A DNA stretch of 63,926 nucleotides, counting the filler, from Nitrospirota bacterium (GTDB lineage: Bacteria > UBA2233), in the NCBI GenBank assembly GCA_011620345.1. It is 8 parts of 8 records of this genome, joined end to end, with 100 filler letters (N's around TTAATTAATTAA, not from the genome) between each part and the next. Parts side by side here need not be neighbours in the genome. Positions count along the whole stretch, not along the records: positions 51,635 to 59,389 come from WOZJ01000007.1; 7 more parts are not named here. The stretch is one strand, 5' to 3'. Below are positions 14,388 to 60,112 of this stretch, one piece after another. Position numbers and translations under genes: made by a program. Position 1 is the stretch's first letter; each line of letters begins with the position of its first letter. The notes under the pieces were generated by a model that saw only the letters and a program-made list of their open reading frames with translations, made no database searches and was not told the DNA's origin.

Positions 14388-14397
14388 GGGTAGCCCC

Positions 14398-17727: not shown

Positions 17728-17852
17728 NNNNNNNNNNNNNNNNNNNNNNNNNNNNNNNNNNNNNNNNNNNNTTAATTAATTAANNNNNNNNNNNNNNNNN
17801 NNNNNNNNNNNNNNNNNNNNNNNNNNNCGTCATGCCCGGTGCTCTCGGGAAC

Positions 17853-34834: not shown

Positions 34835-35079
34835 TGGGCATCTCCGTCGTCTAATGATAAAGTGTTCTGCTTAAATCATTCGCAATGAAGGCTATACGAA
34901 ATACAATTTTAGTAAACCATAGGCCAAGAGTGCCGTCAAGCTGCGAGTTCGACATGATTTTTCCGCTAGCCTGTTCTTTNNNNNNNNNNNNNNNNNNNNN
35001 NNNNNNNNNNNNNNNNNNNNNNNTTAATTAATTAANNNNNNNNNNNNNNNNNNNNNNNNNNNNNNNNNNNNNNNNNNNN

Positions 35080-39149: not shown

Positions 39150-39270
39150 CGTTTTCTCCTATCCACCACTTCGGCAAGAGGATGGGTTGCTCAGCCAAGC
39201 TGATGGCATGGGTTCCTTGCGCAGGATATTTTTGTATTTCATTGGACAAACTTTTCCTTGGTGCACTATA

Positions 39271-39879
39271 TTATTCATCCTTCGGCCGTTCGAAAGCTTC
39301 CTTGGCCTCAAGGTAAACCTCGGGTGTGTCCAAATCTTGCAGGATTCCTTGGTCGTTAAGCTCCACAAAACGCACATGTTTAGCAAATCTTTTGATCAAG
39401 CATTTCAGCGTCTCTTCAGGCCGAAACGCTCTTAAGTATTTCATCGGAAGCAGGATGGGATGGCCCTTCTTTTCTTGGAATATTGGAATCACTATTTGGG
39501 AGGCATTTTGATAAAATACGCCTGCCATTGTCTGGATTGTCTTCGGCTTCACGAGCGGGTGGTCGACGAGATGGACGAGGACGCCTTCCGTGTTGGCTTT
39601 TAACGCTTTAATCCCTACCCGTAAAGAATCCGCCATGGCTGAATTCGGTTTGGGGTTCGTTTCGACCCGTACTGGTAGGTCCTTGGCAAGCGCCTCGAGG
39701 CACAGACGAAGCCCGGGGTGAGTCACGAGGACGACCTTGCCCACTCCCCCGTTCAACATTGCCTCAAGGCAAAGGGTGACTGCCGTCTTACCCTGGAAAT
39801 CAAGCAGGGGCTTGGGACTTCCCATGCGCCTGGATAGCCCGGCTGCAAGAAGAAGCCCCGTTATGTTCGGACAGGTCAT
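39271..39879 (-). CDS. mocA: Molybdenum cofactor cytidylyltransferase-like protein
   Basis: LLAAGLSRRMGSPKPLL, VDHPLV, GHPIL, DLDTPE. Confidence 0.88.
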   Translation of the reverse strand: MTCPNITGLLLAAGLSRRMGSPKPLLDFQGKTAVTLCLEAMLNGGVGKVVLVTHPGLRLCLEALAKDLPVRVETNPKPNSAMADSLRVGIKALKANTEGVLVHLVDHPLVKPKTIQTMAGVFYQNASQIVIPIFQEKKGHPILLPMKYLRAFRPEETLKCLIKRFAKHVRFVELNDQGILQDLDTPEVYLEAKEAFERPKDE

Positions 39880-40648
39880 AGCTACGACGTAGCTGAATGA
39901 TTTCGGCAAGGATAGAAATGGCAATCTCTTGTGGCGTTACGGCACCGATGGGCAACCCGACGGGTGTTCGGATTCGCGCGATGTCTTCCTTGGAAAACCC
40001 CCTTTCTTGAAGAAGGTCGAACAATGCTGCACGCTTGCTCTTCGAGCCGACAAGCCCGATGTAACGGGCCGGGGTTTTGAGCGCGGCAAGAACCACGTTG
40101 AAATCGTGGGTATGACCAAACGTAGCCACGACAATGCAGCTGGATGGCCCTACATCGACCCCTTGGAATGGGTTGGCATAATCGATAAGAACGGCCTTGA
40201 TCCCCCCCTCTAGCTTTTCCTTGGCCCGTTCGAGGTATTCAACCCTGCTATCTAAAAGTACCATCCGAAAACCAAGGGGTTTCGCAAAAACGGCGAGCGC
40301 TTGCCCGATATGGCCTGCCCCCGCAACGATCAACTCGGGGTTGGGTAAAAGGGGCTCGATGTAGACCTTTGCCGTGCCCCCGCACATCGAATCGTTCTCT
40401 TTCGAGAGCTCGAGTGAAAGCAGAGTTGAGCGCTCATCTTCAAGCGCAAGAAGGGCCTGCTCGATCACGCCAAGCTCCATCTTGCCCCCGCCTACCGTTC
40501 CTAAGATCGTACCGTCCTCATAAACGAGCATCTTGGCCCCGGGCCTTTGCGGGACAGATCCGGCTACTTCGACGACGACCGCGAGCGCAACGCGCCTTCT
40601 TTCCCTAACGGCGGCAGCGAGCTCCTCGAAGAAGGCCCCCTCTTCCAT
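39800..40648 (-). CDS. xdhC: XdhC/CoxI family molybdoenzyme maturation factor
   Basis: GSVPQRPGAKM, GTVGGG, CGG, GAGHIG, YIGLVGS, PVGLPIGAVTPQEIAISI. Confidence 0.93.
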   Translation of the reverse strand: MEEGAFFEELAAAVRERRRVALAVVVEVAGSVPQRPGAKMLVYEDGTILGTVGGGKMELGVIEQALLALEDERSTLLSLELSKENDSMCGGTAKVYIEPLLPNPELIVAGAGHIGQALAVFAKPLGFRMVLLDSRVEYLERAKEKLEGGIKAVLIDYANPFQGVDVGPSSCIVVATFGHTHDFNVVLAALKTPARYIGLVGSKSKRAALFDLLQERGFSKEDIARIRTPVGLPIGAVTPQEIAISILAEIIQLRRSYDLSEHNGASSCSRAIQAHGKSQAPA

Positions 40649-40661
40649 CCTTTGTCCTCTT

Positions 40662-42845
40662 TTAAGCCTTTCCGAGCGCTTCCTTGACGCCTTTGGGTGT
40701 CATAGGCAGGGTTCGGACCCTCGCACCAGCCGCCCGAAATACACCGTTTGCTACGGCGGGGGCAATGGGCGGCACGCCAGGCTCTCCGATTCCCCCTTGG
40801 GGCTCGTTGGTGTTGAGGATCTGGACTTCGATCGAGGGCGCTTCGGGCATCCGAAGGAGTCGGTAGGTGTCAAAATTCTTCGATTCCACCCCTCCACCCC
40901 CAAACCTCACGCGCTCAAAAAGGGCCGCGCTAAGCCCCATCAGGATTCCTCCCTGAATCTGGGCTTCGATGATGTCGGGGTTCACGTAAGGCCCGCAGTC
41001 CACCACGGCCCATACGTCATGCACACGGACTATACCCGTTTCTTTATCCACGCTAACCTCGGCCACTTCCCCTACAAAGCTTCCGAACGAGAAGTGCAAC
41101 GCAAGCCCCTTGGTCCGGCCTTCCTTGGCAGGCTCATGCCATTTGGCTTTCTCGCCTAGCGCCTCCAGCACCCTCCTGGCCCTTGGGTTATCCTTAAGGA
41201 GTGCAAGCCGAAACTCGAGTGGGTCACGGCCCGCAAGATAGGCCATCTCGTCCATGAACGATTCCACGACAAAGGCGTTATGGCTGTGCCCTACGCTCCT
41301 CCAGTAGCCCACGGGAATCGGCATGTCTACGCGGACATACTCGACAAAGAGGTTGGGAATGCTATAAAACGTATTCTCCACGCCTTCGATCGCCGATGAG
41401 TCTATTCCGTCCTTTAGGTCGTTTGGGTTCCACCTGGACGAAATCGAGGGAACGGCCATCCTGTGCGACCAGGCGACGAGGTTGCCTTGAGTATCCAATC
41501 CACCAATAACCCGAGCGGCGTTTCCCGGCCGGAAGAAGTCATAAGCAATGTCCTCTTCGCGGGTCCATACCAGCTTGACGGGCTTCCCGGAGGCCTTGGA
41601 GAGGCCTACGGCCTCCTTGACAAAATCAACTTCTGCACGCCTGCCAAACCCTCCCCCCAAGAACGTCGTATGAATAAAGACGTTGTCAGGGCTCACACCA
41701 GCGACTTCGGCGGCGGCCGCTTGGCTCATCGTCTGGTTTTGTGTCGGCACCCAGACGTCTACTTTGTGTTTTTGGACGTACGCGACGCAGTTCATCGGCT
41801 CGAGCGTCGCATGGGCGAGGTACGGCAAGAAATAGCTCGCTTCGAGGCGTTTCGCGGCCCCATCAAGGGCCTTTGGCACGTTGCCCGCGTGCTTAACCTC
41901 GACGCCGTTCTTTTGCAAGTCCTCGCGAAATATCCTCTCGACAAGAGCATCGTCGAGGTCGGCCTGAACCCCCTTCCCCCACTGAACTCCAAGCACAGAC
42001 CTCCCTTTCCAAGCGGAATCGAGCGAGTCGGCCAGGATGCCCACACCCGACTCGAGGACATGAACTTGACGAACGCCCAGGATTGTTTTCGCCCTCGTCT
42101 CGTCAAGCTTTTCTAGCTTTGCTCCGAATGCTGGAGGCCTTGCGATGCTTGCATATAGAATGCCTGGCAAGAAGACATCCAGTCCGAACTGTGCCTTACC
42201 ATCGACCTTGCATGCCGTATCGAAGCGCTTGAGAGGCTTTCCAATGTAATGAAATTCTTGTGGATCTTTGATGCGCGGGTTCGAAGGTAATGGTCGCTTG
42301 GCGGCATCTTTCACGAGCTCCCCATAGCTCAGCCCATGGTCTTTGCCCTTGGCGAACACACGTCCATGTTTGGCGTAGCATACGCTCGGCTCGGCCCCTA
42401 ACTTCTTCGCTCCCACCTCGACGAGCATTTGCCTGGCCTGGGCGGCAGCAAACCTTAAGACGGGGTACATATGCCGGATGGACGTACTTCCTCCCGTCAT
42501 CTGCATACCAAACCCAGGGTCTTTAAAGGCCTCGTCGGCCGGTGCGGTCCTGACGGTGACCTGACCCAAATCGACCTCGAGCTCCTCGGCCACGATCGTG
42601 GGCAGGGCCGTATACACCCCTTGGCCCATTTCGGATTTGTTGACCAGGATGACGGCACGGCCATCTTCGCGGATGAAGAACCACGCAACAGGGCGAAACC
42701 CTTTACTTTCAACATCCTTCGCCAGCAAGACCTCCAAGCCCCAAGGAGTGGTTACAATCGCCAGCCCAAGCCCTGTTATCGAGATCGCGCCCCGAAGAAA
42801 GGCCCTTCTGTTCACGGGCCCCAGAATGGTAGGGTTCGTTTCCAT
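40662..42845 (-). CDS. iorB: Tat-exported isoquinoline-1-oxidoreductase beta-like molybdopterin subunit
   Basis: NRRAFLR Tat motif, SEMGQG, TGGSTS, GGGFGRR, WRSVGHS, GGIGEPG. Confidence 0.9.
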   Translation of the reverse strand: METNPTILGPVNRRAFLRGAISITGLGLAIVTTPWGLEVLLAKDVESKGFRPVAWFFIREDGRAVILVNKSEMGQGVYTALPTIVAEELEVDLGQVTVRTAPADEAFKDPGFGMQMTGGSTSIRHMYPVLRFAAAQARQMLVEVGAKKLGAEPSVCYAKHGRVFAKGKDHGLSYGELVKDAAKRPLPSNPRIKDPQEFHYIGKPLKRFDTACKVDGKAQFGLDVFLPGILYASIARPPAFGAKLEKLDETRAKTILGVRQVHVLESGVGILADSLDSAWKGRSVLGVQWGKGVQADLDDALVERIFREDLQKNGVEVKHAGNVPKALDGAAKRLEASYFLPYLAHATLEPMNCVAYVQKHKVDVWVPTQNQTMSQAAAAEVAGVSPDNVFIHTTFLGGGFGRRAEVDFVKEAVGLSKASGKPVKLVWTREEDIAYDFFRPGNAARVIGGLDTQGNLVAWSHRMAVPSISSRWNPNDLKDGIDSSAIEGVENTFYSIPNLFVEYVRVDMPIPVGYWRSVGHSHNAFVVESFMDEMAYLAGRDPLEFRLALLKDNPRARRVLEALGEKAKWHEPAKEGRTKGLALHFSFGSFVGEVAEVSVDKETGIVRVHDVWAVVDCGPYVNPDIIEAQIQGGILMGLSAALFERVRFGGGGVESKNFDTYRLLRMPEAPSIEVQILNTNEPQGGIGEPGVPPIAPAVANGVFRAAGARVRTLPMTPKGVKEALGKA

Positions 42846-42862
42846 ACTCTGCCCCTTTTCTT

Positions 42863-43330
42863 TTACTCCTGGACCGAGGTAGCCAATGCGACATCAATGG
42901 CCTCTAGGATCCTCGGGTAGGTGCCACACCTGCACAGGTTTCCTGCCATCGCTTGGACAACTTTCTCACGGGTTATCTTAGGGTTTTCATTCAGCACGGC
43001 AATGGCCTGCATGATTTGGCCTGGCTGACAGTAACCGCATTGGGGAACTTGCCTTTGAACCCACGCCCGTTTGACGGGGTGGTCGGATGGAATGCCTTCG
43101 ATCGTCGTCACACGCTTTCCGAAGGCATCGCCCACCGGGACCGAGCAAGAACGAACCGCCTTGCCTTCGAGATGAACCGTACAGGCGCCACACTGGGCAA
43201 TGCCGCAGCCAAATTTCGTCCCAGTTAATTTCAAATGCTCTCGAATGACCCAAAGCAACGGAACATCCGGGCTAACGCCCACCTCGTAGGTTTTCCCGTT
43301 CACAATGAGGGTTGATTTTGCCTTGGGCAT
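42863..43330 (-). CDS. iorA: (2Fe-2S)-binding small subunit
   Basis: [32 protein letters not shown]; start MPKAKS after GGAGG. Confidence 0.93.
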
Positions 43331-43456
43331 TTTTTCCCTCCTCCCGATCGCTTCAAGTTTAACAACGGGCTTTATTTTAACATGCTCCATCTTTTCAAAA
43401 GAACAAGGTTGTCGAGTAACCGTGTAAGATTCGTGCCTTGAGTCAAGTCGATTAAG

Positions 43457-43570
43457 GTCGAAGGGGGACGGCACATCTCTGTGCCATACTCTCCTAAGAA
43501 CCCGGAGTGCGAGTTTTCTCGCACCGGGCTCAAGCCTCTGCAAAGCCCCCTACGACAGGAGCCGGCATTT
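43457..43570 (-). mobile_element. Group II intron 3' end (domains V and VI), cut by contig edge, possibly degenerate
   Basis: Minus strand GAGCCCGGTGCGAGAAAACTCGCACTCCGGGTTC (43531-43498) is a 34-nt domain V with AGC triad and AC bulge, followed by TTAGGAGAG, a GAGA-loop hairpin and a terminal GAC. Confidence 0.8.
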
Positions 43571-43670
43571 NNNNNNNNNNNNNNNNNNNNNNNNNNNNNN
43601 NNNNNNNNNNNNNNTTAATTAATTAANNNNNNNNNNNNNNNNNNNNNNNNNNNNNNNNNNNNNNNNNNNN

Positions 43671-44157: not shown

Positions 44158-44234
44158 TGGCGCGCCCGGCAGGGCTCGAACCTGCGGCCTAAGGATTCGA
44201 AGTCCTTCGCTCTGTCCATCTGAGCTACGGGCGC
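44158..44234 (-). tRNA. tRNA-Arg (anticodon TCG)
   Basis: 77-nt cloverleaf GCGCCCG...AAGGA-CTTCGAA-TCCTT...GCAGG-TTCGAGC-CCTGC-CGGGCGC-G-CCA with encoded CCA. Confidence 0.96.
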
Positions 44235-44381
44235 ACATGAAGGGAGGTTATAGTATAATGAGAAAAGAAGATAGATTCTAGCCTTGAGCCTATGATGTCC
44301 TTGTTGCATGGGTCTTAGGTGCAGGGCCAGGGCGGGATCCGCCCGAGGGTAACGGACAACCAAGACGTAGGGGGAATAGGC

Positions 44382-46301
44382 ATGGACCTTAAGGATCTCA
44401 TCCAAAAAGATAGGGAGCGCAAAAGAAAAGAAAAGTTCGAGGGTACGTTTTTGGATTATCTCGAGCTTGTCAAAGAAGACCCCACCACTCCAAAGCTCTC
44501 CCACAAGAGAATCTACGAAATGATCAGCCGGGATGGCTACGAGACCTTGGACCCAGAAAAAGAGGTTCGCGTCCGAAACATTTACGGCGAGAAAGTTCGT
44601 GTTTACAACTTCTTCAAGGACGAGTTTTTCGGAATAGAAAAGGCAATCGAAGAGATCGTCAAGTACTTCCACGCGGCAAGTCTTGGCGGTGAGGAAGCCC
44701 GCCAGATGCTCTACCTGGTGGGCGCGGTGGGCTCTGGCAAAAGCTCTCTTGTCGAAAAGCTCAAATCCGCGCTCGAGGAGCGGGAGCAAATCTACGCCCT
44801 AAGCGGCTGCCCAATGCATGAAGAGCCGTTGCATCTCGTGCCCCGCCACCTGCGCGGGCAGTTCGAAGAAGAGCTCGGCGTCAAGATCGATGGCGACCTT
44901 TGCCCCGTGTGCCGTTGGCGGCTAGTGAACGAGTACGATTCGCAGTACGAGCGTTTTCCCGTCAGGCTTGTCTCGTTCTCCAAGCGCAACCGTATCGGGA
45001 TCGCGGCCGTCCCGCCCGTCGACCCGAACAACCAGGACACCTCTGTTTTGATCGGAAGCGTGGACATCTCCAAGATCGACAAGTACCCAGAAGATGACCC
45101 AAGGGTTCTTCGCCTCAACGGCGCGTTCAACGTAGGCAATCGTGGCTTGATCGAGTTCATCGAGATTTTTAAGAATGAGATCGAGTATTTGCACACGATC
45201 ATCACGGCCACGCAAGAAAAAGTCATCCCCGCACCCGGAAAGCAGAACCTGATCTACTTTGACGGCGTGATCGTGGCGCACTCGAACTTTGCCGAGTGGA
45301 ACAAGTTTAAGTCCGAGCTCACGAACGAGGCGCTTCTCGATAGAATCGTCAAGATTGAGATTCCCTACTGCATGGAGCTCGACCAGGAGGTACGGATTTA
45401 TCAGAAATATATCAAAAAAAGCCACTTTGAGGCGCACATTGCCCCCGGGACGATCCGTTTCGTCTCTATGTTTGCCGTGTGCTCCCGCCTCAAGGAGACC
45501 AACAAGGTGGACATCCTGACCAAGATGAAGCTTTACAACGGAGAGGACGTGATTGACAAGGGCAAGGTCAAGAAGGTCTCCGTCCAGGAGCTCAAGCGCG
45601 ATGTCGAAGGGGAAGGTTTCTCTGGGATCTCGACGCGCTTCGTCATGAAGGCGATCTCGGATGCGATCGTTGAAAGCGAGCACGAATGTATCAACCCCTT
45701 GCAGCTTCGGGACGTCCTGATCCGGAAGGTTCGTCAGCTTACTATTGCGGATGAGGAGAAGAAGCGCTACTTGACGCTTCTTACCGATACGCTCCACAAA
45801 GAGTACCTAAAGGAGCTCGAGCGGGAGATCATGAGGGCATTCGTCCACGCCTACGAGGAGCAGGCCGAGGGGCTGTTCAACAACTACGTGGACCATATCG
45901 AGGCGTTCTGCAACAAGACCAAGCTCAAAGACCCGGTTACGAAAGAAGAGGTCAACCCGGACGAGCATTTTATGCGCTCGATCGAGGAGCAGATCGGAAT
46001 TGTGGGCGAGGCGGCCAAGGGGTTCCGTCAGGACGTCATGGCCTACTTGATGAGCATGTTCCGGAAGAACGAGAAGGTAGCCTGGAGAAGCTACGAACCC
46101 TTGAAGGAGGCCGTCGAGAACAAGCTTATGGCGAGCGTCAAGGACCTTTCCAGGATCGTGACGAAGGCGAAGATCCGCGACAAGGAGCAGCAGCAGAAGT
46201 ACAACGTCATGGTTGCCAAAATGATCGAGAGCGGCTACTGCGAACACTGCGCCGAATCGCTTTTGAAATACGCGGCCAACAACCTCTGGACGACGGAATG
46301 A
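44382..46301 (+). CDS. prkA: PrkA/YeaG family AAA+ protein
   Basis: FFGIE, GAVGSGKSSL, CPMHEEPLHL, GNRGLIEFIE, EGFSGISTRF. Confidence 0.94.
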   Translation: MDLKDLIQKDRERKRKEKFEGTFLDYLELVKEDPTTPKLSHKRIYEMISRDGYETLDPEKEVRVRNIYGEKVRVYNFFKDEFFGIEKAIEEIVKYFHAASLGGEEARQMLYLVGAVGSGKSSLVEKLKSALEEREQIYALSGCPMHEEPLHLVPRHLRGQFEEELGVKIDGDLCPVCRWRLVNEYDSQYERFPVRLVSFSKRNRIGIAAVPPVDPNNQDTSVLIGSVDISKIDKYPEDDPRVLRLNGAFNVGNRGLIEFIEIFKNEIEYLHTIITATQEKVIPAPGKQNLIYFDGVIVAHSNFAEWNKFKSELTNEALLDRIVKIEIPYCMELDQEVRIYQKYIKKSHFEAHIAPGTIRFVSMFAVCSRLKETNKVDILTKMKLYNGEDVIDKGKVKKVSVQELKRDVEGEGFSGISTRFVMKAISDAIVESEHECINPLQLRDVLIRKVRQLTIADEEKKRYLTLLTDTLHKEYLKELEREIMRAFVHAYEEQAEGLFNNYVDHIEAFCNKTKLKDPVTKEEVNPDEHFMRSIEEQIGIVGEAAKGFRQDVMAYLMSMFRKNEKVAWRSYEPLKEAVENKLMASVKDLSRIVTKAKIRDKEQQQKYNVMVAKMIESGYCEHCAESLLKYAANNLWTTE

Positions 46302-46322
46302 CGGAATAGGAGGAGGCTGCCA

Positions 46323-47504
46323 ATGGCCATTTTTCAAGACCCCATAACCGACGAGCGGCCAGACCCGACCGCGGCCGACAGGGCCAGGCACAAAGAAAAG
46401 GTCAAAGAGGCGATCAAGGAAAACATCGCGGACATCGTGGCAGAGGAGTCCATCATCGGCCAAAGCGGCGACAAGGTCTTCAAGGTTCCCATCCGCGGCA
46501 TGAAGGAGTATCGGTTTGTCTACGGGGACGATGCAGGCGTAGGGCAGGGGTCCGGCAATGAGAAGCGGGGAGATGTTGTCGAGAAGGGCGGAGTTCAAGA
46601 TGAGCTCGGCAGGCAGGGTGCTGGCAATCAGAAGGGCGCCGAGTACTACGAGACGGAGATTACCTTAGAGGAGCTTACGGACATCCTGTTTGACGACCTC
46701 ATGCTGCCTAACATGGTCAAACAAAGGCTCAAAGAGGTCGAATCCAAACGCGACGTCGTCTTCAAGGGGGTCCGAAAGAAAGGCATCATGGTCCGTCTGG
46801 ACAAGAAGCGGACGGTCGTCGAGAAGCTCAAGCGAAAAGCGGCGCAAGGGCGGATGGAAGATGAAGAGTTCTCCTTCACTGAAGATGACCTTCGCTTCAG
46901 GAAGCGCACGGAGAGGATGCGAAAGCACTCGAACGCCGTCGTGTTTTGCGTGATGGACACCTCGGGCTCGATGAACAACACCAAGAAATTCCTGGCCAGG
47001 AGCTTTTTCTTCCTGCTCTACAAATTCTTGGAGCTCAAATACCAAAACATCCAGGTTGTGTTCATCGCGCACACGACCGAAGCCAAGGAGCTCTCAGAGG
47101 TCGAGTTCTTCACCAAGGGTGAAGACGGGGGGACGTACCTTTCCTCGGGCCAGAATAAAGTCCTCGAGGTTGTGCATGAAAGGTACGACCCGAGCGCATG
47201 GAACATCTACGTGTTCCATGCCTCGGATGGCGACAATTTCGTCAACGACAACGAGCGCAGCATTCGGTCGATGAAAGAGCTGTGTCAAATTGCCAACCTA
47301 GTCGGCTTCTGCGAGATCGACTTGGCCGAGGATGCATTTTACTACTCCGGCTCGTCCAAGATCCTCCACCTGTACCATAACGCGCTTGCTTCCTGCCCCA
47401 ACTTCTCTACGGCCGTAATCAAGAACAAGTTCGACATCTACAACGCGTTTCGGAAGGTCATCAAAAACGACAAGACGAAGGGCGCCGAGGAGGTCTATGC
47501 CTAG
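46323..47504 (+). CDS. yeaH: YeaH/YhbH (DUF444) vWA-like protein
   Basis: DRARHKEKVKEAIK, MDTSGSM, FIAHTTEA, GGT, HASDGDN. Confidence 0.92.
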   Translation: MAIFQDPITDERPDPTAADRARHKEKVKEAIKENIADIVAEESIIGQSGDKVFKVPIRGMKEYRFVYGDDAGVGQGSGNEKRGDVVEKGGVQDELGRQGAGNQKGAEYYETEITLEELTDILFDDLMLPNMVKQRLKEVESKRDVVFKGVRKKGIMVRLDKKRTVVEKLKRKAAQGRMEDEEFSFTEDDLRFRKRTERMRKHSNAVVFCVMDTSGSMNNTKKFLARSFFFLLYKFLELKYQNIQVVFIAHTTEAKELSEVEFFTKGEDGGTYLSSGQNKVLEVVHERYDPSAWNIYVFHASDGDNFVNDNERSIRSMKELCQIANLVGFCEIDLAEDAFYYSGSSKILHLYHNALASCPNFSTAVIKNKFDIYNAFRKVIKNDKTKGAEEVYA

Positions 47505-48750
47505 CTATACCAAGCAAGACCTCGAAGACTACGCCAGGAAGGTCGAGCAAAAGGCGGCGGAATTCGGCCTCGATCACTACGAGGTGGTCTACGAAGTGTG
47601 CGGCCATGCGACGATGATCAACCGAATGGCCTACTCGGGGGTTCCGTTTCGCTACCACCACTGGTCGTTCGGTAAGGCCTACGACGTGATCAACACGAGC
47701 TACACCTACGGCGTGGGGGGCTTGCCCTACGAGATGGTCATCAACGCAAACCCTGCGATCGCCTACTTAATGGCGGATAACCCCTTGGCTGTCCAGGTCT
47801 TGGTGATGGCGCACGTCTTGGGGCATGTAAATTTCTTCAAGCATAACTACGTGTTCAAGAAGACATACCCGCAGGATGCGCTCGCAAGCTTCAAGGTGCA
47901 TGCAAGACGGATCAATGGCTTTATTGATACATACGGAATTTCGAAGGTCGAGAAATTTCTGGACGCGGCCAAGGCCTTAGAATTCAATACCATGCGCATG
48001 ATCTTGCTCCTCGAAGAAGGCCCCTCCGAGCCTGAGGAGTGGAAGCCCAGGAAAAAAGTGGAAGAACCGGCGGAAGATATCTTGCTGTTTATCAGGGACC
48101 ACAACCCCATGCTCGAGCCCTGGCAGAAGGATATCCTTACGATCGTCCGCGACGAGGCCCTGTATTTTCTTCCGCAGATCGAAACGAAGATCATGAACGA
48201 GGGCTGGGCAACGTTTTGGCATTATCGTATAATGAACGCTTTGGAGTTGCCGTTCGATATGCAGATGGAGTTCTTGAAGCTTCACAACCGGATCGTGCAG
48301 CCCTCTCTCGGAACTGTCAACCCTTACGCGCTTGGCTTTTCCATCTGGCAGGATTTGGAAGGCCGGATGGGTTTGGAGGGGCTCTTTTCGGTCATGGAGG
48401 CCAATCGGGACGTTTCCTTCGTTCGTCAGTTCTTGACCCGTGACATTATGGAGCGACTCCATATGTTCGCCTACAAGAAGAAAGGGGCGAGCGAGGTGGT
48501 TATCAAGGAGGTTGCAGACGATAAGGGCTGGAAGGACGTACGCGAAGAGTTGATCCGCTGGATCGGCGTAAACAGCCTGCCGGTCATCAAGATTGTAGAC
48601 GTCGAACCCGACGGCACGCTTGTGTTGAAATACTTTGGAGACGGAAGGAAGCTGGATCCCGAATACAAGGAGCACACGCTTCGATACGTCGAGCTACTGT
48701 GGGGCAATCGGGTCAAGATGCTCGAAGCACCCATGACCAATGTTTCATAA
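47497..48750 (+). CDS. SpoVR/YcgB family protein
   Basis: RYHHWSFGK, LPYEMVIN, AHVLGHVNFFK, ETKIMNEGWATFWH, NPYALG. Confidence 0.94.
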   Translation: MPSYTKQDLEDYARKVEQKAAEFGLDHYEVVYEVCGHATMINRMAYSGVPFRYHHWSFGKAYDVINTSYTYGVGGLPYEMVINANPAIAYLMADNPLAVQVLVMAHVLGHVNFFKHNYVFKKTYPQDALASFKVHARRINGFIDTYGISKVEKFLDAAKALEFNTMRMILLLEEGPSEPEEWKPRKKVEEPAEDILLFIRDHNPMLEPWQKDILTIVRDEALYFLPQIETKIMNEGWATFWHYRIMNALELPFDMQMEFLKLHNRIVQPSLGTVNPYALGFSIWQDLEGRMGLEGLFSVMEANRDVSFVRQFLTRDIMERLHMFAYKKKGASEVVIKEVADDKGWKDVREELIRWIGVNSLPVIKIVDVEPDGTLVLKYFGDGRKLDPEYKEHTLRYVELLWGNRVKMLEAPMTNVS

Positions 48751-51528: not shown

Positions 51529-51668
51529 AAGGAGNNNNNNNNNNNNNNNNNNNNNNNNNNNNNNNNNNNNNNNNNNNNTTAATTAATTAANNNNNNNNNN
51601 NNNNNNNNNNNNNNNNNNNNNNNNNNNNNNNNNNGCTTTATCCGTGACAACCTTTATCCGGCCTACCT

Positions 51669-53856: not shown

Positions 53857-54900
53857 ATGCCCAAGCGTGTGGGGATTTTAACCGGCGGAGGCGATTGTCC
53901 AGGCCTAAACGCCGCCATCCGTGCCGTTGTTCGTAGGTTGCTTCCCGAGAACATCGAAACGATCGGCATTCTCAAGGGCTGGAAGGGGGCATTGGAAAAA
54001 GAAACCATGCCTTTGGGCGTGGACGAGGTAGCGGGCATCCTGCCCAGAGGCGGAACAATCCTTAGGACTTCCAGGACAAACCCGTTGAAGCATGATGGTG
54101 GGCTGGAGAAAACCGTTAAAAACCTGGAAGGCCTAGGCATTGAAGCGCTCGTAGCGATCGGAGGGGAGGATACGCTCGGCGTGGCCTCGAAGCTGTTCGA
54201 GGCGGGGGTGAAGGTCGTCGGAATCCCAAAGACGATCGACAACGACCTTTCCGGTACGGACATGACGTTCGGGTTCGACACGGCCGTTTCCATCGCAACC
54301 GAGGCGATCGATCGAATCCACACGACCGCCGAGTCGCACGATCGGGTCATGGTCGTCGAGGTGATGGGCCGCTATACCGGATGGATCGCCGCTTACTCTG
54401 GGATCGCGGGCGGGGCGGATGCCATCCTTATCCCTGAAGAGCCGTTTTCGCTCGAAGAGGTCGTCAGAATCATAAGAAAGCGTCACGAGCGCGGCCGGGA
54501 TTTCAGCATTGTCGTCGTTGCGGAAGGCGCCAAGTTTGGCGATGTGGCCGAGAAGAACATGCTGGTCGTTCAAGACGCCCGGATGGACGAGTTCGGGCAT
54601 GTCAAGCTTGGAGGGATCGGCAACGTCCTGGCGCGGGAGATCGAAGATCAGACAGGCTATGAAACCCGGGTTACCGTCTTGGGGCACATCCAGCGAGGGG
54701 GGACTCCGACGGCGTTTGACCGTGTCCTGGCCACCCGGTTCGGGGTTTTCGCCGCAGATCTCGTGTTGCAAGGCAAGTTCGGGCATATGGCTGCGTTGCG
54801 AGGGATGCAGATTGCGGATGTTCCGCTGAAAGAAGCCACGGGCCAGGTTAAAAAGCTCGACAAGAAGATCTTCGAGGTTGCGAAGGTCTTCTTCGGCTAG
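53857..54900 (+). CDS. pfkA: 6-phosphofructokinase, probably PPi-dependent
   Basis: TGGGDCPGLN, IGGEDT, PKTIDND, EVMGR, LGHIQRGG. Confidence 0.95.
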   Translation: MPKRVGILTGGGDCPGLNAAIRAVVRRLLPENIETIGILKGWKGALEKETMPLGVDEVAGILPRGGTILRTSRTNPLKHDGGLEKTVKNLEGLGIEALVAIGGEDTLGVASKLFEAGVKVVGIPKTIDNDLSGTDMTFGFDTAVSIATEAIDRIHTTAESHDRVMVVEVMGRYTGWIAAYSGIAGGADAILIPEEPFSLEEVVRIIRKRHERGRDFSIVVVAEGAKFGDVAEKNMLVVQDARMDEFGHVKLGGIGNVLAREIEDQTGYETRVTVLGHIQRGGTPTAFDRVLATRFGVFAADLVLQGKFGHMAALRGMQIADVPLKEATGQVKKLDKKIFEVAKVFFG

Positions 54901-54945
54901 CCTCTTTTTTTTCGCGAGCAGCGCAAGGCGGGGCATTTTGAGGGC

Positions 54946-54967
54946 TTAGGAGGCAGAAGCCTCCTAA
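54946..54967. terminator. Hairpin between convergent pfk and cytochrome operon
   Basis: TTAGGAGGC-AGAA-GCCTCCTAA, perfect 9-bp stem. Confidence 0.5.
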
Positions 54968-55065
54968 ACGGCGCTGGTTTTCCCGGGAGGGCCCTCCCCG
55001 TGGCTAGGCCGAAAACTTCTCCGGTGCATGCCGTTTTTTCGGTGTTCTCTAGGTGGTTGCCGTGG

Positions 55066-56487
55066 CTATCGGGCAAAGCGTCCTTCCTGCCTTCGGTGCC
55101 TTGAGGCGTCGTGGCAGGGGTAGCAATCTTGGCTGCGCTGTTTTTTTTCCTCTTGGGCGCAGCGGCTATGGGTTGCAAGCGGAACCCTCCAACGCTTTTC
55201 GTGGGCCTTCGAATGCAGAATCACCTGCCCGTTTTTCTCCCTTAGGTGGGGGAGTGGCTCGTTAGCATCCGTTATTCCAATACGGTCTCCTAGCTTAAGG
55301 GCAGGAAAACCCCTCCTGTAGCTTCTCACAACCCAAAACGCCTCATCGGCCCCGCTTGCAAGCGTTCGGAGCGCGGGCAACGAGGTTTTTGTCCCATGGC
55401 AGGTCTTGCAGCGAACCCTTTGGAGCGCGTCCTTATTGCCCGTCAGGTGGCCATCGCCCATGACCTCGGTGCGGGTATGGCAGTCGATGCACTCTAACTC
55501 GACCTCACAGCGGGCGAACTGGGCCTGGGGGATGTAGTAAGCCTTCCAGCGGTCCGCATTGGGGTCCGTGATCGCCGGCCTAGGAATGTCCGCCCTGTAG
55601 AAGAATTCAAGCCTCAAGGAGTGAACCCCTTGGTTGTGACAGGCATTGCAGGCCGTATACGAGATGGCCGTCGTCATTTTGTGGTAGGGCGCATGGCCGG
55701 CCTCGTTCTTTTTGATCGCCTTGTCTTTCCCCAAATAGCGGCCGCTTGGCCGAAAGGGGACATGGCAGGCCGCACAGCCTGAAAGGTGCCTGGCGTCGGT
55801 GTTTTTTAAATCATGGCCCGTATGGAGATGACAAAAGCTCAGGCAGTTCTTTACGAAGCGCGTTTTTTGCGGGTTGTCCTCCGGCCGAAAAGGTGCGAGC
55901 GAACTGGCTGCAAGCATGCGTTTTTCTCGGATCTCTGGGATCAGTCCGAGGGCCTCTCGGGCTGGGCTTACGCCAAACCGGGCAAGCTCGTCTTTTTGCC
56001 AGCCCAGGGCAAACGCGGCCTTGGCGATCTCGGAGGCCTTGGTGGCCATGAGTGTCAAGGGTACGCTCGCAGACGGGCTCCTTGAAGGGTTATCGGACCT
56101 TACGTGGCAGCCTTCTTTCCCGCAGGTCTTTTCTTGAACCTCAAGGGTGGCCGGGTTTCTTTTTCCAAGAAGCCCTTTGTGGGCGCGTGGCTTCGAAAGC
56201 GCAAGAGCGTTTCCTCCATGGCAGACCACGCAGCCAAACGCCCGGGTAGGGTGCGCCGGGCTGATCTCTTCGATTCCAAAATGGCAGGTAAGGCAACGCT
56301 CCGGCTTTCCTGTAAGCGTGGGCACGACCGTCATTGGCTCTGCGCTAAAGCGTCTCCAGGGCTGCATGGCATCCTTGATAAAGACAAGAATGAGCGCGGC
56401 CCCACCAAGGACAACGCCTACGATGGCGACAAGCCTCCAGGCGTCTTTTACGGCCCATGCGAACCGTCTCAAGGCCAAGAAAACCAA
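55066..56487 (-). CDS. Membrane-anchored multiheme cytochrome c
   Basis: N-terminal TM segment; CLTCH, CVVCH, CAACH, CNACH, CIDCH, CKTCH, CYPCH plus CGKEGCH and CLSFCH. Confidence 0.9.
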   Translation of the reverse strand: MVFLALRRFAWAVKDAWRLVAIVGVVLGGAALILVFIKDAMQPWRRFSAEPMTVVPTLTGKPERCLTCHFGIEEISPAHPTRAFGCVVCHGGNALALSKPRAHKGLLGKRNPATLEVQEKTCGKEGCHVRSDNPSRSPSASVPLTLMATKASEIAKAAFALGWQKDELARFGVSPAREALGLIPEIREKRMLAASSLAPFRPEDNPQKTRFVKNCLSFCHLHTGHDLKNTDARHLSGCAACHVPFRPSGRYLGKDKAIKKNEAGHAPYHKMTTAISYTACNACHNQGVHSLRLEFFYRADIPRPAITDPNADRWKAYYIPQAQFARCEVELECIDCHTRTEVMGDGHLTGNKDALQRVRCKTCHGTKTSLPALRTLASGADEAFWVVRSYRRGFPALKLGDRIGITDANEPLPHLREKNGQVILHSKAHEKRWRVPLATHSRCAQEEKKQRSQDCYPCHDASRHRRQEGRFAR

Positions 56488-56828
56488 AGCCTAAAAAAGA
56501 GCGTGGCTAAAACCCAAAAGCTCAAGAGACCGATCCCAAGACCTTTTATGGCCGTATGTCTTCTCATCGGAAAGTATGGCAGCAAAACAAGAAAGCAAAG
56601 CGCTAGCATAGGCAGGAAAACCCCGGCAAGAAAGGGCGAAAAGATCAGCAAGAGCCCTTGGATCGCCACGAAAATCCACGGCGCTGGGGCAACTCCGCCT
56701 TGAGGGGGCCCGCCAACGATCAAGCCGGAAGGAAAAAGGGCCGCAGCGAGGGCCAAAAGCCCCAAAGCCAACAAGAATACGGCTCCCTCTCGCCTAAGAA
56801 GTTCTCTTCTTGGGATAAAACCCTTCAT
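56469..56828 (-). CDS. Cytochrome b subunit IV-like membrane protein
   Basis: Three TM segments, APWIF at the PEWYF position, LLPYF; directly after the split cytochrome b. Confidence 0.75.
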   Translation of the reverse strand: MKGFIPRRELLRREGAVFLLALGLLALAAALFPSGLIVGGPPQGGVAPAPWIFVAIQGLLLIFSPFLAGVFLPMLALCFLVLLPYFPMRRHTAIKGLGIGLLSFWVLATLFFRLWFSWP

Positions 56829-57478
56829 AGGCCCCGACTGACCCCGCCATCCCGACGCACGCGGTAAAAGTGCCATGCGCACAGCCCGAGCGCCAAAAAA
56901 GGCAACACCCCGCAGTGGAGCGCGTAGAGCCTGAGCCCAGCGCCCTGGCCTACGGGGTCGGCACCGAAAACGAGGGCTTGGAAGATTCCGCCCAGCAAGG
57001 GAACCTCCCCCAAAAGCCCGAACGCCACCCTAGAGGCATCCATTGCCCTTTCATCGCCGATCAAGAGGTAGCCGCTGAAATCTAGAAAGAATGTCAGCAC
57101 CAAAAGGCTCATGCCGATGAGCCAGTTCCCCCGACGCGGCGGGGCAAAGGCACCCGAGGCCAGCACCCTCAGCGTATGGCCAACGAGCACGATAATCATG
57201 AGCTGGCCCGCGAAGAAATGCAGGCTCCTTAGGAAAGAGCCGTAGGCTAGGGCCTCTTCGATCGTCAAGACCGAATCAAGGGCCTCGCTTGGCGATCCTG
57301 GCTTATAAAAGGGCATCAAAAGAAATCCCGTGAAGATCAAGACCACAAAAAACCCGAAGGAAAGCCCACCTAAGCAAAGAGTGGGCCAAAGCCCCGCGGC
57401 GTCTTTTGGGATCTTTGGCGGATGGATGTGCGCCAAGAACCCGAATATCCCGTTTCGGTTTGTGCCCAGCGCCTTCAT
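56825..57478 (-). CDS. Cytochrome b6-type N-terminal subunit
   Basis: TLCLGG, H-x13-H in helix B, H-x14-H in helix D, NWLIG, FSGYLL. Confidence 0.92.
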   Translation of the reverse strand: MKALGTNRNGIFGFLAHIHPPKIPKDAAGLWPTLCLGGLSFGFFVVLIFTGFLLMPFYKPGSPSEALDSVLTIEEALAYGSFLRSLHFFAGQLMIIVLVGHTLRVLASGAFAPPRRGNWLIGMSLLVLTFFLDFSGYLLIGDERAMDASRVAFGLLGEVPLLGGIFQALVFGADPVGQGAGLRLYALHCGVLPFLALGLCAWHFYRVRRDGGVSRGL

Positions 57479-57906
57479 AGGCGAAACTCCGGGCCGGCCT
57501 CGATGGTCAGCCCGGCCTTAAGTCGAGCTTCGCTCACCTTAAAAAGCTTTAGGCGCTTGAGGGGCCTGACGGCCGGCCCTTTGAGCACCCGACCCCCTAG
57601 ATCGTATTCGCTCCCGTGGCATGGGCATGAAAACGAGGATTCCAGCGGAACAAAACGAACAGGGCACCCCAAGTGGCTACAGCGGTTCAAAAGGGCATAG
57701 GAGCCTTTTTTGTCGCGCACAAGCCAAGCGAGCCCTTGGTTGCCGAGAAGGGGTTCTTCGCCTCCTTGGGGCTTTGTGAGGTCGAACTCCTCGAACTCGG
57801 GTACCCTCCCCTCTGGGTTAGAGCCAAGATAGCCTAAAACGAGCTTCAAAAACCCCAATGCGGGCAAGGCCAAAAGGGCTTTTACAAGGTTCCGCCTTGC
57901 AAACAT
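57475..57906 (-). CDS. Rieske [2Fe-2S] protein
   Basis: ARRNLV Tat-like anchor, CSHLGC and CPCHGSEYD boxes, GPAVRPL. Confidence 0.94.
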   Translation of the reverse strand: MFARRNLVKALLALPALGFLKLVLGYLGSNPEGRVPEFEEFDLTKPQGGEEPLLGNQGLAWLVRDKKGSYALLNRCSHLGCPVRFVPLESSFSCPCHGSEYDLGGRVLKGPAVRPLKRLKLFKVSEARLKAGLTIEAGPEFRL

Positions 57907-58015
57907 CCGAACCTTCGGGTATTCAGAAAGTTCCGGCCGGGGTAAAAACGCCCCGGCCGGAACTTTCACGCAAGTAATTCAGGCCCAGAGGCCTCAAGCC
58001 AAGCAAAAACCCTGC

Positions 58016-58369
58016 CTACTTGGCCCCGTAGCTGGCCGCCTTTTGCTGCCAGTCGCTCGGATGGCACGAGCCACAGTTGAACTGCAGGTCGTCAAACGGG
58101 TTGACCATGCCCTGGTGCGCCCTGGCCTTGTCCGTCGCGCCCGGCTGGCCGGCGTGGCAGTAATCGCAGGCATCGAGGTTGGCGTGGTCTACATGCCATT
58201 TGCCCTGGTTCGAGACGGGCTTTTGCTTTTGGATCTCATGGCAGCTCTTGCAAGAGCTCACCGAAGACCCGCAGGCAGCATGAAGAGGGCCTACTCTATA
58301 CAGCCCGCTAAAAAGAACGATCGCTATACTTGAAAGAAGGAGCTTCTTCTTGAAACCCGGTGGTTTCAT
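58016..58369 (-). CDS. Small periplasmic triheme cytochrome c
   Basis: Signal peptide; CKSCH, CDYCH, CGSCH; RBS GGAGG. Confidence 0.88.
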   Translation of the reverse strand: MKPPGFKKKLLLSSIAIVLFSGLYRVGPLHAACGSSVSSCKSCHEIQKQKPVSNQGKWHVDHANLDACDYCHAGQPGATDKARAHQGMVNPFDDLQFNCGSCHPSDWQQKAASYGAK

Positions 58370-58411
58370 GGCACAGTAAACCTCCATTTTTTTACAGGGC
58401 AACATTCCTTT

Positions 58412-59254
58412 CTATAGGCCTCTAGGAGGATGATTCGACCAATCGACCTTCTCGATATCTACATGGCATGTCGTACAGTTCATCTGCGCCTTGACGTTCA
58501 AGTTGTACGCATTCTGGGCATCGACATGGCAAGTAACACAGGCCGAATATTCTCCTGAAGGCTCATAAGTCGCTAAGTACTTCCCGTCATAGTCATCGTT
58601 GATCATTTTGGCGACATGAAACGCCACGTCTCCGGCAACCTTGGCGCACCTGTCGGCCCTTTCAGGGCTGAGTGCCGTGATCGAAGGCCGTTCTTTCCTT
58701 GCACCGTTGACCCATGTGGTGACGCTGATGTGGCATATCGGGCTTTTGGCAACCGTCTTGGGTTGATTTTTGTATTTCGCGTAGGCATCATGGTCCGTGC
58801 TTGGAAATTCCTGCTTGGAATACCAGTCGAAAAGATCGTTTATGAGCTTTTGATACGTCAATGGATTGCCCACGAGGTTTAGTACGGCCGCAGCACCATT
58901 CAACGTGCCACAAACCGTTCCCCATCCGGCGATGCCCCCACCGCCGTAGCGGTACATATCCACGGGAAGCGTCGTAAAAGGCGCTCCGATATCGGCCTGC
59001 AAAGCCCTAACGAGTGTTGCCGCCACGGCGAACATGCACTCTCCCTCATAAAAGTTCTCGTACGCGCTCTGCCGGATCGCAACAGGATCAAAGCGGTAAG
59101 AGCCTAAAGTCCAGGGCAGTCTGAGCGTTCTGGGCGCCTCCAGGGTTTGCGCCATACCATCTTGGCCTAAGAGCCTACCCAACCCAAAAGCCCCGCCTGT
59201 TATCACCCCTGCGGCCATCAAAAGACCTCTTCGCGAAACGTTTCCCTCAGACAT
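58412..59254 (-). CDS. Split-Soret cytochrome c-like (C-GCAxxG-C-C family) protein, Tat-exported
   Basis: SRRGLL Tat motif; YGGGGIAGWGTVCGTLNGA, ICHISV, RCAKVAGDV; C-terminal CVTCH and CTTCH. Confidence 0.85.
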   Translation of the reverse strand: MSEGNVSRRGLLMAAGVITGGAFGLGRLLGQDGMAQTLEAPRTLRLPWTLGSYRFDPVAIRQSAYENFYEGECMFAVAATLVRALQADIGAPFTTLPVDMYRYGGGGIAGWGTVCGTLNGAAAVLNLVGNPLTYQKLINDLFDWYSKQEFPSTDHDAYAKYKNQPKTVAKSPICHISVTTWVNGARKERPSITALSPERADRCAKVAGDVAFHVAKMINDDYDGKYLATYEPSGEYSACVTCHVDAQNAYNLNVKAQMNCTTCHVDIEKVDWSNHPPRGL

Positions 59255-59312
59255 TCTCTCCTCTCCCCTTTTTGGCCTAAGGAGCGCCCCTTTTGGCCTC
59301 AAGCACTTGCGT

Positions 59313-59389
59313 TTAGTAGGCTACGGGGAACCCCGCGGCCGTCCAGTTGGTCGTTCCGCCGATTAAGTCATACACCTGCGTGAATCCCT
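59313..59389 (-). CDS. Rhodanese-like domain protein, C-terminal fragment truncated by contig end
   Basis: Not in the ORF track; manual translation GFTQVYDLIGGTTNWTAAGFPVAY* matches the rhodanese C-terminal GF..V..L.GG...W...G.PV pattern. Confidence 0.75.
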
Positions 59390-59489
59390 NNNNNNNNNNN
59401 NNNNNNNNNNNNNNNNNNNNNNNNNNNNNNNNNTTAATTAATTAANNNNNNNNNNNNNNNNNNNNNNNNNNNNNNNNNNNNNNNNNNNN

Positions 59490-60030
59490 AAGGCACGATG
59501 ACGTAGGGCCAAAGCGGCTCGTACTCCCAAATGCTGTAGTTTAGCTCTAGGCTTGCCGAGCTGCCACACTGCGAGATGACCGTGGCGCGCGCGGCGGGCA
59601 AGGAGAACTGGGGCAGAATAATTTCGCCCTGGATGGCCTGGCCCTCAGAGATGAAGGCAAGCGGCACGCCGCCTGGAAAGCTGAGCGTAAAAAGGGCATC
59701 GTACGCATCTTGTGTGTTTTGGGATTGGGTATTTCCGTAGCCAGACGGCGCGGGGACGATGCTCAGGCTTGTTTGCCCGCCCCTCGGGAAATCCAAAATT
59801 ACCTCCCTTAAGCCATTTTGGGCGGTCTGCACGGGAAGCATGGGCCCGTAGGGGCTTTCTGGGTCTGGGCTTACGGTAACGGCGATGCGCCCTCCTTGGG
59901 GGGTGAACGCGTACACTGCGCCGTTGCACCGAAGGCTGGCCTGGGCGGGCGGGCTTTGAGGAAAAGCCGACCCAACGGCAAGAAGCCAGGCAAACGCCGC
60001 CATTCTTAAAACGCGTCCGGCATTCCCCAT
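59490..60030 (-). CDS. Hypothetical exported protein, 3' truncated
   Basis: Signal peptide-like N-terminus; ORF runs off the contig start. Confidence 0.6.
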
Positions 60031-60112
60031 CAACGGGAATCTATGATAATATGGGCTTTCAGCGGGCATGGGGCCTGCTCCTTATTTGATGGTGTATACT
60101 GCAGAACGACAG

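Follow-up and report, generated by a model that had tools for sequence, protein, structure and literature searches.

A Rieske/cytochrome b operon of a Nitrospirota bacterium that includes a nonaheme cytochrome and a split-Soret cytochrome c homologue

We analyzed a 63,926-base stretch of DNA from a Nitrospirota bacterium (GenBank assembly GCA_011620345.1), referred to here as the window, and found at the right-hand end of its seventh contig (51635-59389, 7,755 bases) an operon on the minus strand that joins a split Rieske/cytochrome b core to three c-type cytochromes, one of them homologous to split-Soret cytochrome c (SSC). According to the reading that we favor, to which we assign a probability of about 60%, the operon would encode a Rieske/cytochrome b complex of the b6 type, equipped with a nine-heme wire, through which the menaquinone pool and the periplasm would exchange electrons, with a triheme cytochrome and the SSC homologue as its soluble partners.

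The operon consists of six complete co-oriented genes, preceded by the 3' remnant of a gene truncated at the contig end. In the direction of reading, these are the end of a rhodanese-like gene (59313-59387, 24 codons plus the stop), the SSC homologue (58412-59254), a triheme c-type cytochrome (58016-58405), a Rieske [2Fe-2S] protein (57475-57969), a b6-type cytochrome b (56825-57478), a subunit-IV-like protein (56469-56828), and a membrane-anchored nonaheme cytochrome (55066-56487). From the fragment onward, the successive intergenic gaps are 58, 6, 46, -4, -4, and -19 bases, the largest gap among the complete genes being the 46 bases at the triheme/Rieske junction. The GC content is even across the genes of the contig (0.52-0.59), and the six complete genes are presumably co-transcribed. 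In the entire 64-kb window, only three open reading frames (ORFs) contain at least two CxxCH motifs, and all three belong to the operon, namely, the SSC homologue, the triheme, and the nonaheme cytochrome. A promoter scan of 54700-59389, which we judged uninformative, found no sigma-70-like promoter, including in the 46-base gap. A scan for terminator-like sites, likewise judged uninformative, gave 13 sites as compared to 8.3 +/- 2.2 in shuffled sequences, an enrichment that is not clear.

An earlier note on this DNA had described the same unit as seven co-oriented, tightly spaced genes with a split b6-type Rieske/cytochrome b core, an anchored multiheme cytochrome replacing cytochrome f/c1, an SSC-like diheme protein with a signal for twin-arginine translocation (Tat), and a small triheme cytochrome. 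Family matches bear out this anatomy, and the assignments of the SSC homologue, cytochrome b, and Rieske protein lie far above chance (E=1e-31, 2.6e-27, and 7.8e-12, respectively). As to the gene count, six genes are complete, tightly spaced, and co-oriented as described, while what remains of the seventh is 24 residues long and gives weak evidence of its family.

The cytochrome b has 217 residues and corresponds to the four-helix N-terminal half of the family (PF00033, E=2.6e-27, 96.3 bits against a cut-off of 27.2). It is nearer to b6 than to bc1, as the b6 structures in the PDB matched with E=4.8e-28 and the best bc1 cytochrome b with 1.2e-14. The four heme histidines align with those of b6 structures, and the helix-D histidine ligands are 14 residues apart. 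In addition, the cysteine of its LCLGG motif aligns with the cysteine of the b6 YCLGG motif that binds heme ci/cn, pointing to a probable heme ci site. The subunit-IV-like protein has 119 residues, counted from an ATG that overlaps the stop codon of cytochrome b, and contains three to four transmembrane (TM)-like segments. It had no sequence match in Pfam, NCBIfam, or the PDB. Nevertheless, six natural cytochrome b fusions align to it with their C-terminal part (P0013, P0023, P0025, P0028, P0034, and P0114; E values from 5e-6 to 4e-11), and its nearest ESM Atlas clusters are labeled 'cytochrome b C-terminal/petD' (score 0.94, 218 of 256 features). At the position of the PEWY motif of the quinol oxidation (Qo) site it reads APWI, and six fused relatives carry APWI or APWF at this position. 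Judged by these alignments, cytochrome b and the subunit-IV-like protein are a split b6-type pair with the Qo motif on subunit IV.

The Rieske gene overlaps that of cytochrome b by four bases (ATGA). Its product matches PF00355 (E=7.8e-12, 45.4 bits, cut-off 20.3) and contains the two cluster-binding boxes as CSHLGC and CPCHGS. The N-terminal anchor includes an RR pair and one TM-like segment (residues 28-46), and the true start may be an internal methionine at residue 22. The nearest solved structures are two Rieske proteins of Kuenenia stuttgartiensis, 9RK3 (E=2.5e-13) and 9RK4 (E=2.6e-12), followed by PetC of the b6f complex.

The nonaheme cytochrome is a protein of 473 residues with one N-terminal TM segment, in which seven heme motifs are CxxCH and the other two are a Cx4CH and a Cx3CH. 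In alignment A2, all 28 homologues retain the nine motifs without variation, which fixes at nine a heme count that had been given before as seven to nine. As candidate sixth ligands, the family conserves beyond these no more than four to five histidines (H79, H103, H269, and, in 25 of 28, H265), one methionine (M343), and one lysine (K427), and two extra cysteines, C327 and C443, are invariant. Several of the hemes may have unusual or inter-subunit ligation. No sequence relative was found in the PDB at E<=1, and the assignment to the nine-heme NhcA-type cytochromes was rejected on this ground. A tblastn search against 72,556 plasmids also gave no match. In a word-indexed protein search, 455 proteins, mostly of about 435 residues, matched at E<=1e-10, whereas an exhaustive search of 1.84 billion representatives returned 560 clusters at E<=1e-3, 267 at E<=1e-10, and 44 at E<=1e-30. 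Source names were few among the matches and included Anaerolineae, Thermoflexales, and a metagenome-assembled genome (MAG) of Clostridiales.

That these subunits belong together is indicated by natural fusions. One protein of 756 residues (P0114) is a colinear fusion of cytochrome b, subunit IV, and nonaheme cytochrome, with 42, 40, and 41% identity to the three window proteins, and nine further proteins fuse cytochrome b with the nonaheme domain when all 333 fetched proteins are compared. Moreover, three pairs of cytochrome b and nonaheme matches come from contigs of identical size (6755, 2969, and 6998 bases), an indirect measure to which we give little weight, as it is unreliable for clusters with many members. 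Because of the fusions and the equal-sized source contigs, one enzyme can safely be taken to comprise cytochrome b, subunit IV, and the nonaheme cytochrome. Among the same proteins is a second fused lineage of about 900 residues, in which cytochrome b is joined to an ExtM-like multiheme domain (P0287, P0289, P0293, P0299, P0312, P0323, P0324, and P0332). These proteins carry GPWY or GPWF at the Qo position, are distinct from the APWI/APWF group, and recall the GPWY clade described in the accessible part of PMC4122944.

The triheme cytochrome has 129 residues, a hydrophobic N terminus, and CxxCH motifs at residues 52, 80, and 111, that is, within its last 78 residues. Its match to the Cytochrome_C7 family (PF14522; E=0.0025, 18.1 bits) is under the cut-off of 24.8, and the cytochrome c3 models are sub-threshold as well. 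The nearest ESM Atlas cluster is labeled 'cytochrome c7-like' (score 0.94, 167 shared features), which we treat as a lead only. The protein also matches positions 17-84 of the ExtM profile NF040943 (E=0.0015) and bears a weak similarity to the initial three-heme portion of the nonaheme family and of ExtM-like proteins.

The SSC homologue has 280 residues from the ATG at 59254, and its relatives start at the same methionine. It aligned to the SSC of Desulfovibrio desulfuricans ATCC 27774 (PDB 1H21) with E=1e-31 over residues 69-283 of the 296-residue ORF form. The likeness is one of full-length homology, in which the C_GCAxxG_C_C-type domain is matched at its four cysteines, as are the two CxxCH motifs near the C terminus. 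The score for PF09719 is 40.7 bits, above the cut-off of 27; in contrast, the score for the NCBIfam equivalog of the Desulfovibrio SSC (NF047622) is 141.4 bits, which is under its cut-off of 400. Across the 21 SSC sequences of alignment A1, the twin-arginine pair, the four cysteines, and the second CxxCH never vary. The protein is thus predicted to be exported by the Tat pathway and to hold two hemes and a four-cysteine iron center; the family is defined further by a dimer whose stacked hemes split the Soret band and by a [2Fe-2S] center.

As for the family at large, the twin-arginine motif is present in 63 of the 86 SSC-family ORFs found in the reference loci described below (L001-L079), and two CxxCH motifs occur in 68 of these ORFs, one in 16, and none in two. 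The family therefore pairs a Tat signal with c-type heme motifs, i.e., with periplasmic heme attachment, which is an unusual combination. A database protein of 454 residues from a 3.4-kb contig (P0046) contains the first 92 residues of the window SSC (58979-59254) at 100% identity, followed by unrelated sequence; it is probably a chimera of assembly or gene calling. The earlier note had regarded the SSC as a protein with no settled role. This agrees with the accessible text of PMC4215793, according to which the SSC showed no fitness phenotype in D. alaskensis G20.

On the favored reading, menaquinol would be oxidized at the Qo site, where the motif is APWI, and electrons would pass from there to the Rieske cluster and on to the nine-heme wire. 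The nonaheme cytochrome would then hand them to the triheme cytochrome, the SSC homologue, or both, and finally to a periplasmic acceptor, although the same chain could run the opposite way. The c7-like triheme and the Tat-exported SSC are most likely the soluble electron partners of the complex, and menaquinone is the presumed quinone. We prefer this reading because of the tight co-oriented spacing, the homogeneous GC content, the cofactor motifs, the fusions, an analogous arrangement at one SSC locus from another organism (L042, see below), and the precedent of multiheme cytochromes that replace cytochrome f.

This precedent is provided by the Rieske/cytochrome b complexes of anammox bacteria and of Methanoperedens, as described in the accessible parts of PMC12954380 and PMC4683180. 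The Kuenenia gene sets Kustd1480-1485 and Kuste4569-4574 likewise combine a b6-like four-helix cytochrome b with a subunit-IV-like protein and have a cytochrome with six or eight hemes where cytochrome f would be (PMC12954380, accessible part), and no solved structures are closer to the window Rieske than those of the Kuenenia Rieske proteins (9RK3 and 9RK4). Unlike the Kuenenia complexes, the operon lacks both an NAD(P) oxidoreductase subunit and an HAO-like octaheme cytochrome, and its multiheme cytochrome is without a PDB relative. Furthermore, the Kuenenia subunit IV was modeled with five helices (PMC12954380, same part), as compared to the three to four TM-like segments here. With the b6f complex and the b6c complex of Firmicutes, the operon shares the split b6 and subunit IV, the CxHxGC and CxCHGS Rieske boxes, the heme ci cysteine, and the 14-residue spacing of the helix-D histidines. 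It differs from both in having neither a cytochrome f nor a subunit IV-cytochrome c fusion but an anchored nonaheme cytochrome instead, and in its APWI motif in place of PEWY or PDWY. The core is a new member of a kind of complex that is known but uncharacterized and that takes in Ext/Cbc6-like, APWY-like, and, by design, anammox-like complexes.

To place the SSC homologue in context, we surveyed the linkage of SSC genes across genomes. An alignment of 21 homologues was scanned against one genome per GTDB species, yielding 261 pattern matches, 220 of which encode relatives. From the best 80 of these 220 relatives we examined 79 loci, including up to 10 kb of flanking sequence, in which every ORF of at least 50 residues was compared with the window cytochrome b, Rieske protein, subunit IV, nonaheme, and triheme (phmmer, E<1e-3). 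In addition, a Pfam scan was performed on 147 cluster representatives of SSC neighbors, drawn from 72 co-oriented neighbors within 300 bases and from ORFs in the same orientation that are 85-560 residues long and at most 2.5 kb away. The recurrent neighbors among the 79 loci were sigma-54 response regulators (16), ABC ATPases (15), histidine kinases (15), ArsR (10), ResB (10), CcsA (8), the ArsP permease (7), MarR (6), and YeeE-like sulfur-transport genes (4). No Rhodanese domain was detected in the 147 representatives, a scan that covered ORFs of other sizes and those on the opposite strand only in part.

One locus shows an analogous arrangement. In a MAG of Ignavibacteriales (L042, 1536-8884), a MarR gene is followed by an SSC-like gene (394 residues), an NrfC-like 4Fe-4S protein, an NrfD-like membrane protein, and a 13-heme c3-like cytochrome, and then by a histidine kinase. 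Here, the SSC-like gene would be part of an apparent operon with a different quinone-interacting module.

Another recurrent arrangement in the survey involves cytochrome c maturation genes. ResB lies directly 3' of the SSC-like gene, at a distance of about 72-103 bases, in ten loci (L015, L017, L019, L023, L030, L044, L063, L066, L075, and L079). These come from Spirochaetia/Treponemataceae-type MAGs, with L066 titled only 'bacterium'. A CcsA-like cluster is present in 8 of the 79 loci and, in L019, the one locus in which its position was checked, directly follows ResB. ResB and CcsA look like a dedicated heme-attachment system for this cytochrome.

Several of our observations weigh against the favored reading. 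First, in APW-type Qo motifs the acidic residue is missing, and no complex of that type has been characterized according to the accessible part of PMC4122944; ordinary quinol oxidation is therefore not assured. Second, none of the 79 SSC loci contained a homologue of the Rieske protein, cytochrome b, subunit IV, nonaheme, or triheme, and only 7 of the 79 had another ORF with at least two CxxCH motifs within 5 kb. The closest reference locus (L001), on a 2.9-kb contig of a Deferribacterales MAG, encodes an SSC that is 56% identical to that of the window and has succinate dehydrogenase-like genes upstream. Third, no protein containing an SSC fusion was found among the 333 fetched proteins. Finally, there is one instance of the arrangement, located where a short contig ends, and no SSC match came from a contig equal in size to those of the cytochrome b or nonaheme relatives, which is a weak and indirect measure. 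We conclude that SSC genes lie, as a rule, outside Rieske/cytochrome b clusters and that the arrangement in the window is unusual for the SSC family. The synteny of SSC with Rieske/cytochrome b and rhodanese, which the earlier note had put forward as a check, was thus followed from the SSC side, and the result is partly against it, with no linked locus among 79 and no Rhodanese domain in the 147 representatives.

The link of SSC to Rieske/cytochrome b looks lineage-specific. Because the best locus of the survey is only 56% identical, the species of the window and its close SSC-bearing relatives are absent from that collection. Closer relatives do exist in protein databases: cytochromes b with identities of 99, 83, and 81%, nonaheme cytochromes with identities from 98 down to 71%, and SSCs with identities of 88 and 77% (the 71-99% relatives are P0001-P0005, P0035, P0036, and P0065-P0069). 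A cluster that joins split-Soret with Rieske was not found described in open-access full text. Neither do the accessible parts of PMC11492766, PMC4215793, PMC5701242, and PMC8359318 place an SSC gene in a respiratory operon, PMC11492766 naming SSC in its references only. As far as we searched open-access text, the combination of SSC with Rieske, cytochrome b, and a nonaheme cytochrome is undescribed.

The alternative that survives best keeps the same architecture and turns the direction of electron flow. A periplasmic donor would reduce the SSC or triheme, and electrons would pass through the nonaheme cytochrome and the Rieske protein to the menaquinone pool. Kao and Hunte 2014 assigned split cytochromes b that carry a CxGG motif to an APWY clade spanning several phyla, no member of which is characterized, and proposed reverse operation for it from a p-cresol cluster of G. 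metallireducens (PMC4122944, accessible part). The window shares with this clade the split cytochrome b, a proline at the second Qo position with no acidic residue in the motif, and the CxGG motif, and the Qo position is APWI in the window and APWI or APWF in the six fused relatives. The clade extends over delta-Proteobacteria, Chloroflexi, Firmicutes-like lineages, and others, a range with which the taxa of the nonaheme matches (Anaerolineae, Thermoflexales, and Clostridiales) overlap. A multiheme subunit is not mentioned for the clade in that part of the paper. On the other hand, the fourth motif residue is isoleucine rather than tyrosine, and LCLGG stands in place of the typical WCMGG, so that APWI and LCLGG appear to fit the description of the clade closely but not exactly, and the likeness is one of motifs and not of a tree. 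In addition, the published idea of reverse operation is itself unproven, and no donor-oxidizing enzyme is encoded on the contig. We regard the reverse direction as less likely than not, but as a possibility to be taken seriously within the same architecture.

A second alternative is that the Rieske protein, cytochrome b, subunit IV, and nonaheme cytochrome form the functional unit alone, and that the SSC, triheme, and rhodanese genes are lineage-specific neighbors with a job of their own, for example in stress or detoxification redox. The absence of Rieske/cytochrome b from all 79 SSC loci fits this view, as does the finding that SSC genes elsewhere lie mostly beside regulators and otherwise by the cytochrome c maturation genes ResB (10) and CcsA (8). 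Similarly, fusions of the nonaheme family involve cytochrome b and in no case SSC, and the widest gap between complete genes is the one that separates the triheme from the Rieske gene. However, the genes are tightly co-oriented, the 46-base gap shows no promoter-like site, and the composition is homogeneous throughout. The triheme, moreover, is similar to the module that holds the first three hemes in the nonaheme family, and the L042 locus places an SSC-like gene inside the operon of a quinone module. Taken together, we consider it rather unlikely that SSC and triheme are mere passengers.

The earlier note had proposed a sulfur- or selenium-linked periplasmic chain, by comparison with the Geobacter ext cluster. 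In such a chain, a rhodanese would handle sulfane sulfur or selenium, and the SSC or the multiheme cytochromes would draw on the quinone pool for electrons to reduce polysulfide, thiosulfate, selenite, or tellurite. According to the accessible text of PMC5877670, the extHIJKLMNOPQS genes encode the rhodanese-like ExtH (reported as 49 kDa), the porin ExtI, ExtJ, the five-heme selenoprotein ExtKL, the 12-heme ExtM, the 10-heme ExtN, the Rieske protein ExtO, the cytochrome b ExtP, the membrane protein ExtQ, and the four-heme ExtS, and deletion of ExtI impairs selenite and tellurite reduction. A tie of the ext cluster to sulfur reduction, which the note had also named, does not appear in that text. 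The comparison is apt in that the best NCBIfam matches of the window cytochrome b and nonaheme cytochrome are ExtP (NF040969) and ExtM (NF040943), respectively. In both clusters, genes for a Rieske protein and a cytochrome b are grouped with those for a small membrane protein and a large multiheme cytochrome, upstream of which lies a rhodanese-like gene (in the window, its probable 3' end), and the operon resembles the O-P-Q-M part of the Geobacter cluster. The correspondence is not one-to-one, however, which agrees with the profile comparison that the note had suggested. ExtP matched over its full length with 192.8 bits, under the equivalog cut-off of 290, and ExtM over profile positions 16-393 of 599 with 167 bits, under the cut-off of 800. 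The multiheme cytochrome of the window is shorter and encoded last, whereas it comes first in Geobacter, and it has nine hemes as compared to 12 in ExtM. Counterparts of ExtI, ExtJ, ExtKL, ExtN, and ExtS were not found on the contig as far as it reaches, i.e., up to the rhodanese fragment, and conversely the ext gene list in the accessible part of PMC5877670 shows no SSC.

The rhodanese itself is represented by 24 residues. They match positions 102-123 of the 126-position NCBIfam model NF041203 (rhodanese-related (seleno)protein; E=0.0018, 18 bits, cut-off 115), a model for a small, single-domain protein, and give no Pfam match at E<=1. None of the 27 ORFs that abut another contig edge in the window matched as the missing N-terminal part. 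Thus, the rhodanese C terminus named in the earlier note has a family match in its favor, with the shortness of the fragment and the lack of a Pfam match on the other side, and we take the fragment to be the probable end of a single-domain rhodanese. Its co-orientation 58 bases upstream of SSC speaks for a sulfur or selenium chain, and so do the Ext matches, the effect of ExtI loss, and the SSC loci with ArsR (10 of 79), ArsP (7 of 79), or YeeE-like genes (4 of 79). Against it stand the scantiness of the rhodanese evidence, the Ext scores well under their cut-offs, the lack of the ExtI porin, ExtKL, ExtN, and ExtS on the contig, and the absence of Rhodanese domains from the SSC neighbors. Furthermore, the role of the Cbc6 (CbcMNOPQR) part of the Geobacter cluster is listed together with those of Cbc3-5 as unknown in the accessible part of a 2026 review (PMC13591261). 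The sulfur/selenium inference, based on the 24-residue tail, finds no support beyond it, and we consider such a chain improbable.

An inner-membrane module for metal-reducing extracellular electron transfer, as in the Geobacter Cbc systems that feed porin-cytochrome conduits, is very improbable, as the similarity to ExtP and ExtM and the triheme, which we take to be akin to the periplasmic shuttles of Geobacter (a likeness weakly supported by PF14522 and ESM Atlas), are set against a contig with no porin or outer-membrane multiheme cytochrome and a window with only three ORFs that contain at least two CxxCH motifs.

The surroundings of the operon are limited by the way in which the window was built. 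It consists of eight contigs of decreasing size (9,017 down to 4,437 bases), separated by spacers of the form N44-TTAATTAATTAA-N44 at 9018-9117, 17728-17827, 26364-26463, 34980-35079, 43571-43670, 51535-51634, and 59390-59489. Because the window is made of joined contigs, genes flanking a spacer are not neighbors, and the sequence past 59389 is uninformative on the operon; ORFs such as 59434-60069 extend into the N runs of a spacer. Downstream of the operon, a convergent phosphofructokinase gene ends the unit, and beyond it lie genes for a protein with a Mut7-C RNase domain, a DksA-type protein, and a GntR/FCD regulator. On another contig, 9385-15945 (plus strand) encodes a hydrogenase-4 (Hyf)-like membrane module with HyfB, HyfE, a HyfF-like protein, and a NuoD/large-subunit-like gene. 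The region 36927-43543 contains two molybdenum subunits of the xanthine dehydrogenase/aldehyde oxidoreductase family, an XdhC-like maturation factor, and a [2Fe-2S] subunit; in the protein encoded at 36927-39149, segments of the family models were matched in an unusual order. A PrkA-YhbH-SpoVR trio lies at 44319-48750 (plus strand), with a tRNA gene just upstream on the minus strand (44161-44234).

To our knowledge, the SSC has no assigned role, even though it has been known for decades and its structure is solved, and multiheme-bearing Rieske/cytochrome b complexes are widespread in anaerobes, none of them outside anammox having been studied biochemically. The SSC of the window differs from the protein of 1H21 in scoring under the NF047622 cut-off and, unlike all 79 reference loci, sits in a Rieske/cytochrome b operon. 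The nonaheme family of about 435 residues is found in Chloroflexota-, Firmicutes-, and Desulfobacterota-like records. A more far-reaching proposal would make the SSC the dedicated periplasmic redox partner, or the terminal reductase or oxidase, of an APW-type Rieske/cytochrome b-nonaheme complex to which the rhodanese delivers a sulfur or selenium substrate. We hold this to be unlikely as it stands; if true, it would give SSC its first physiological pathway and the APWY/Ext-like complexes their first defined partner. Should the linkage to SSC prove not to be conserved in relatives, the operon would be the gene arrangement of one lineage with limited reach, whereas a conserved linkage would make it a useful entry point. 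In either case, it offers a concrete hypothesis for two orphan systems, namely, that the complex reduces, or is reduced by, SSC and the triheme cytochrome.

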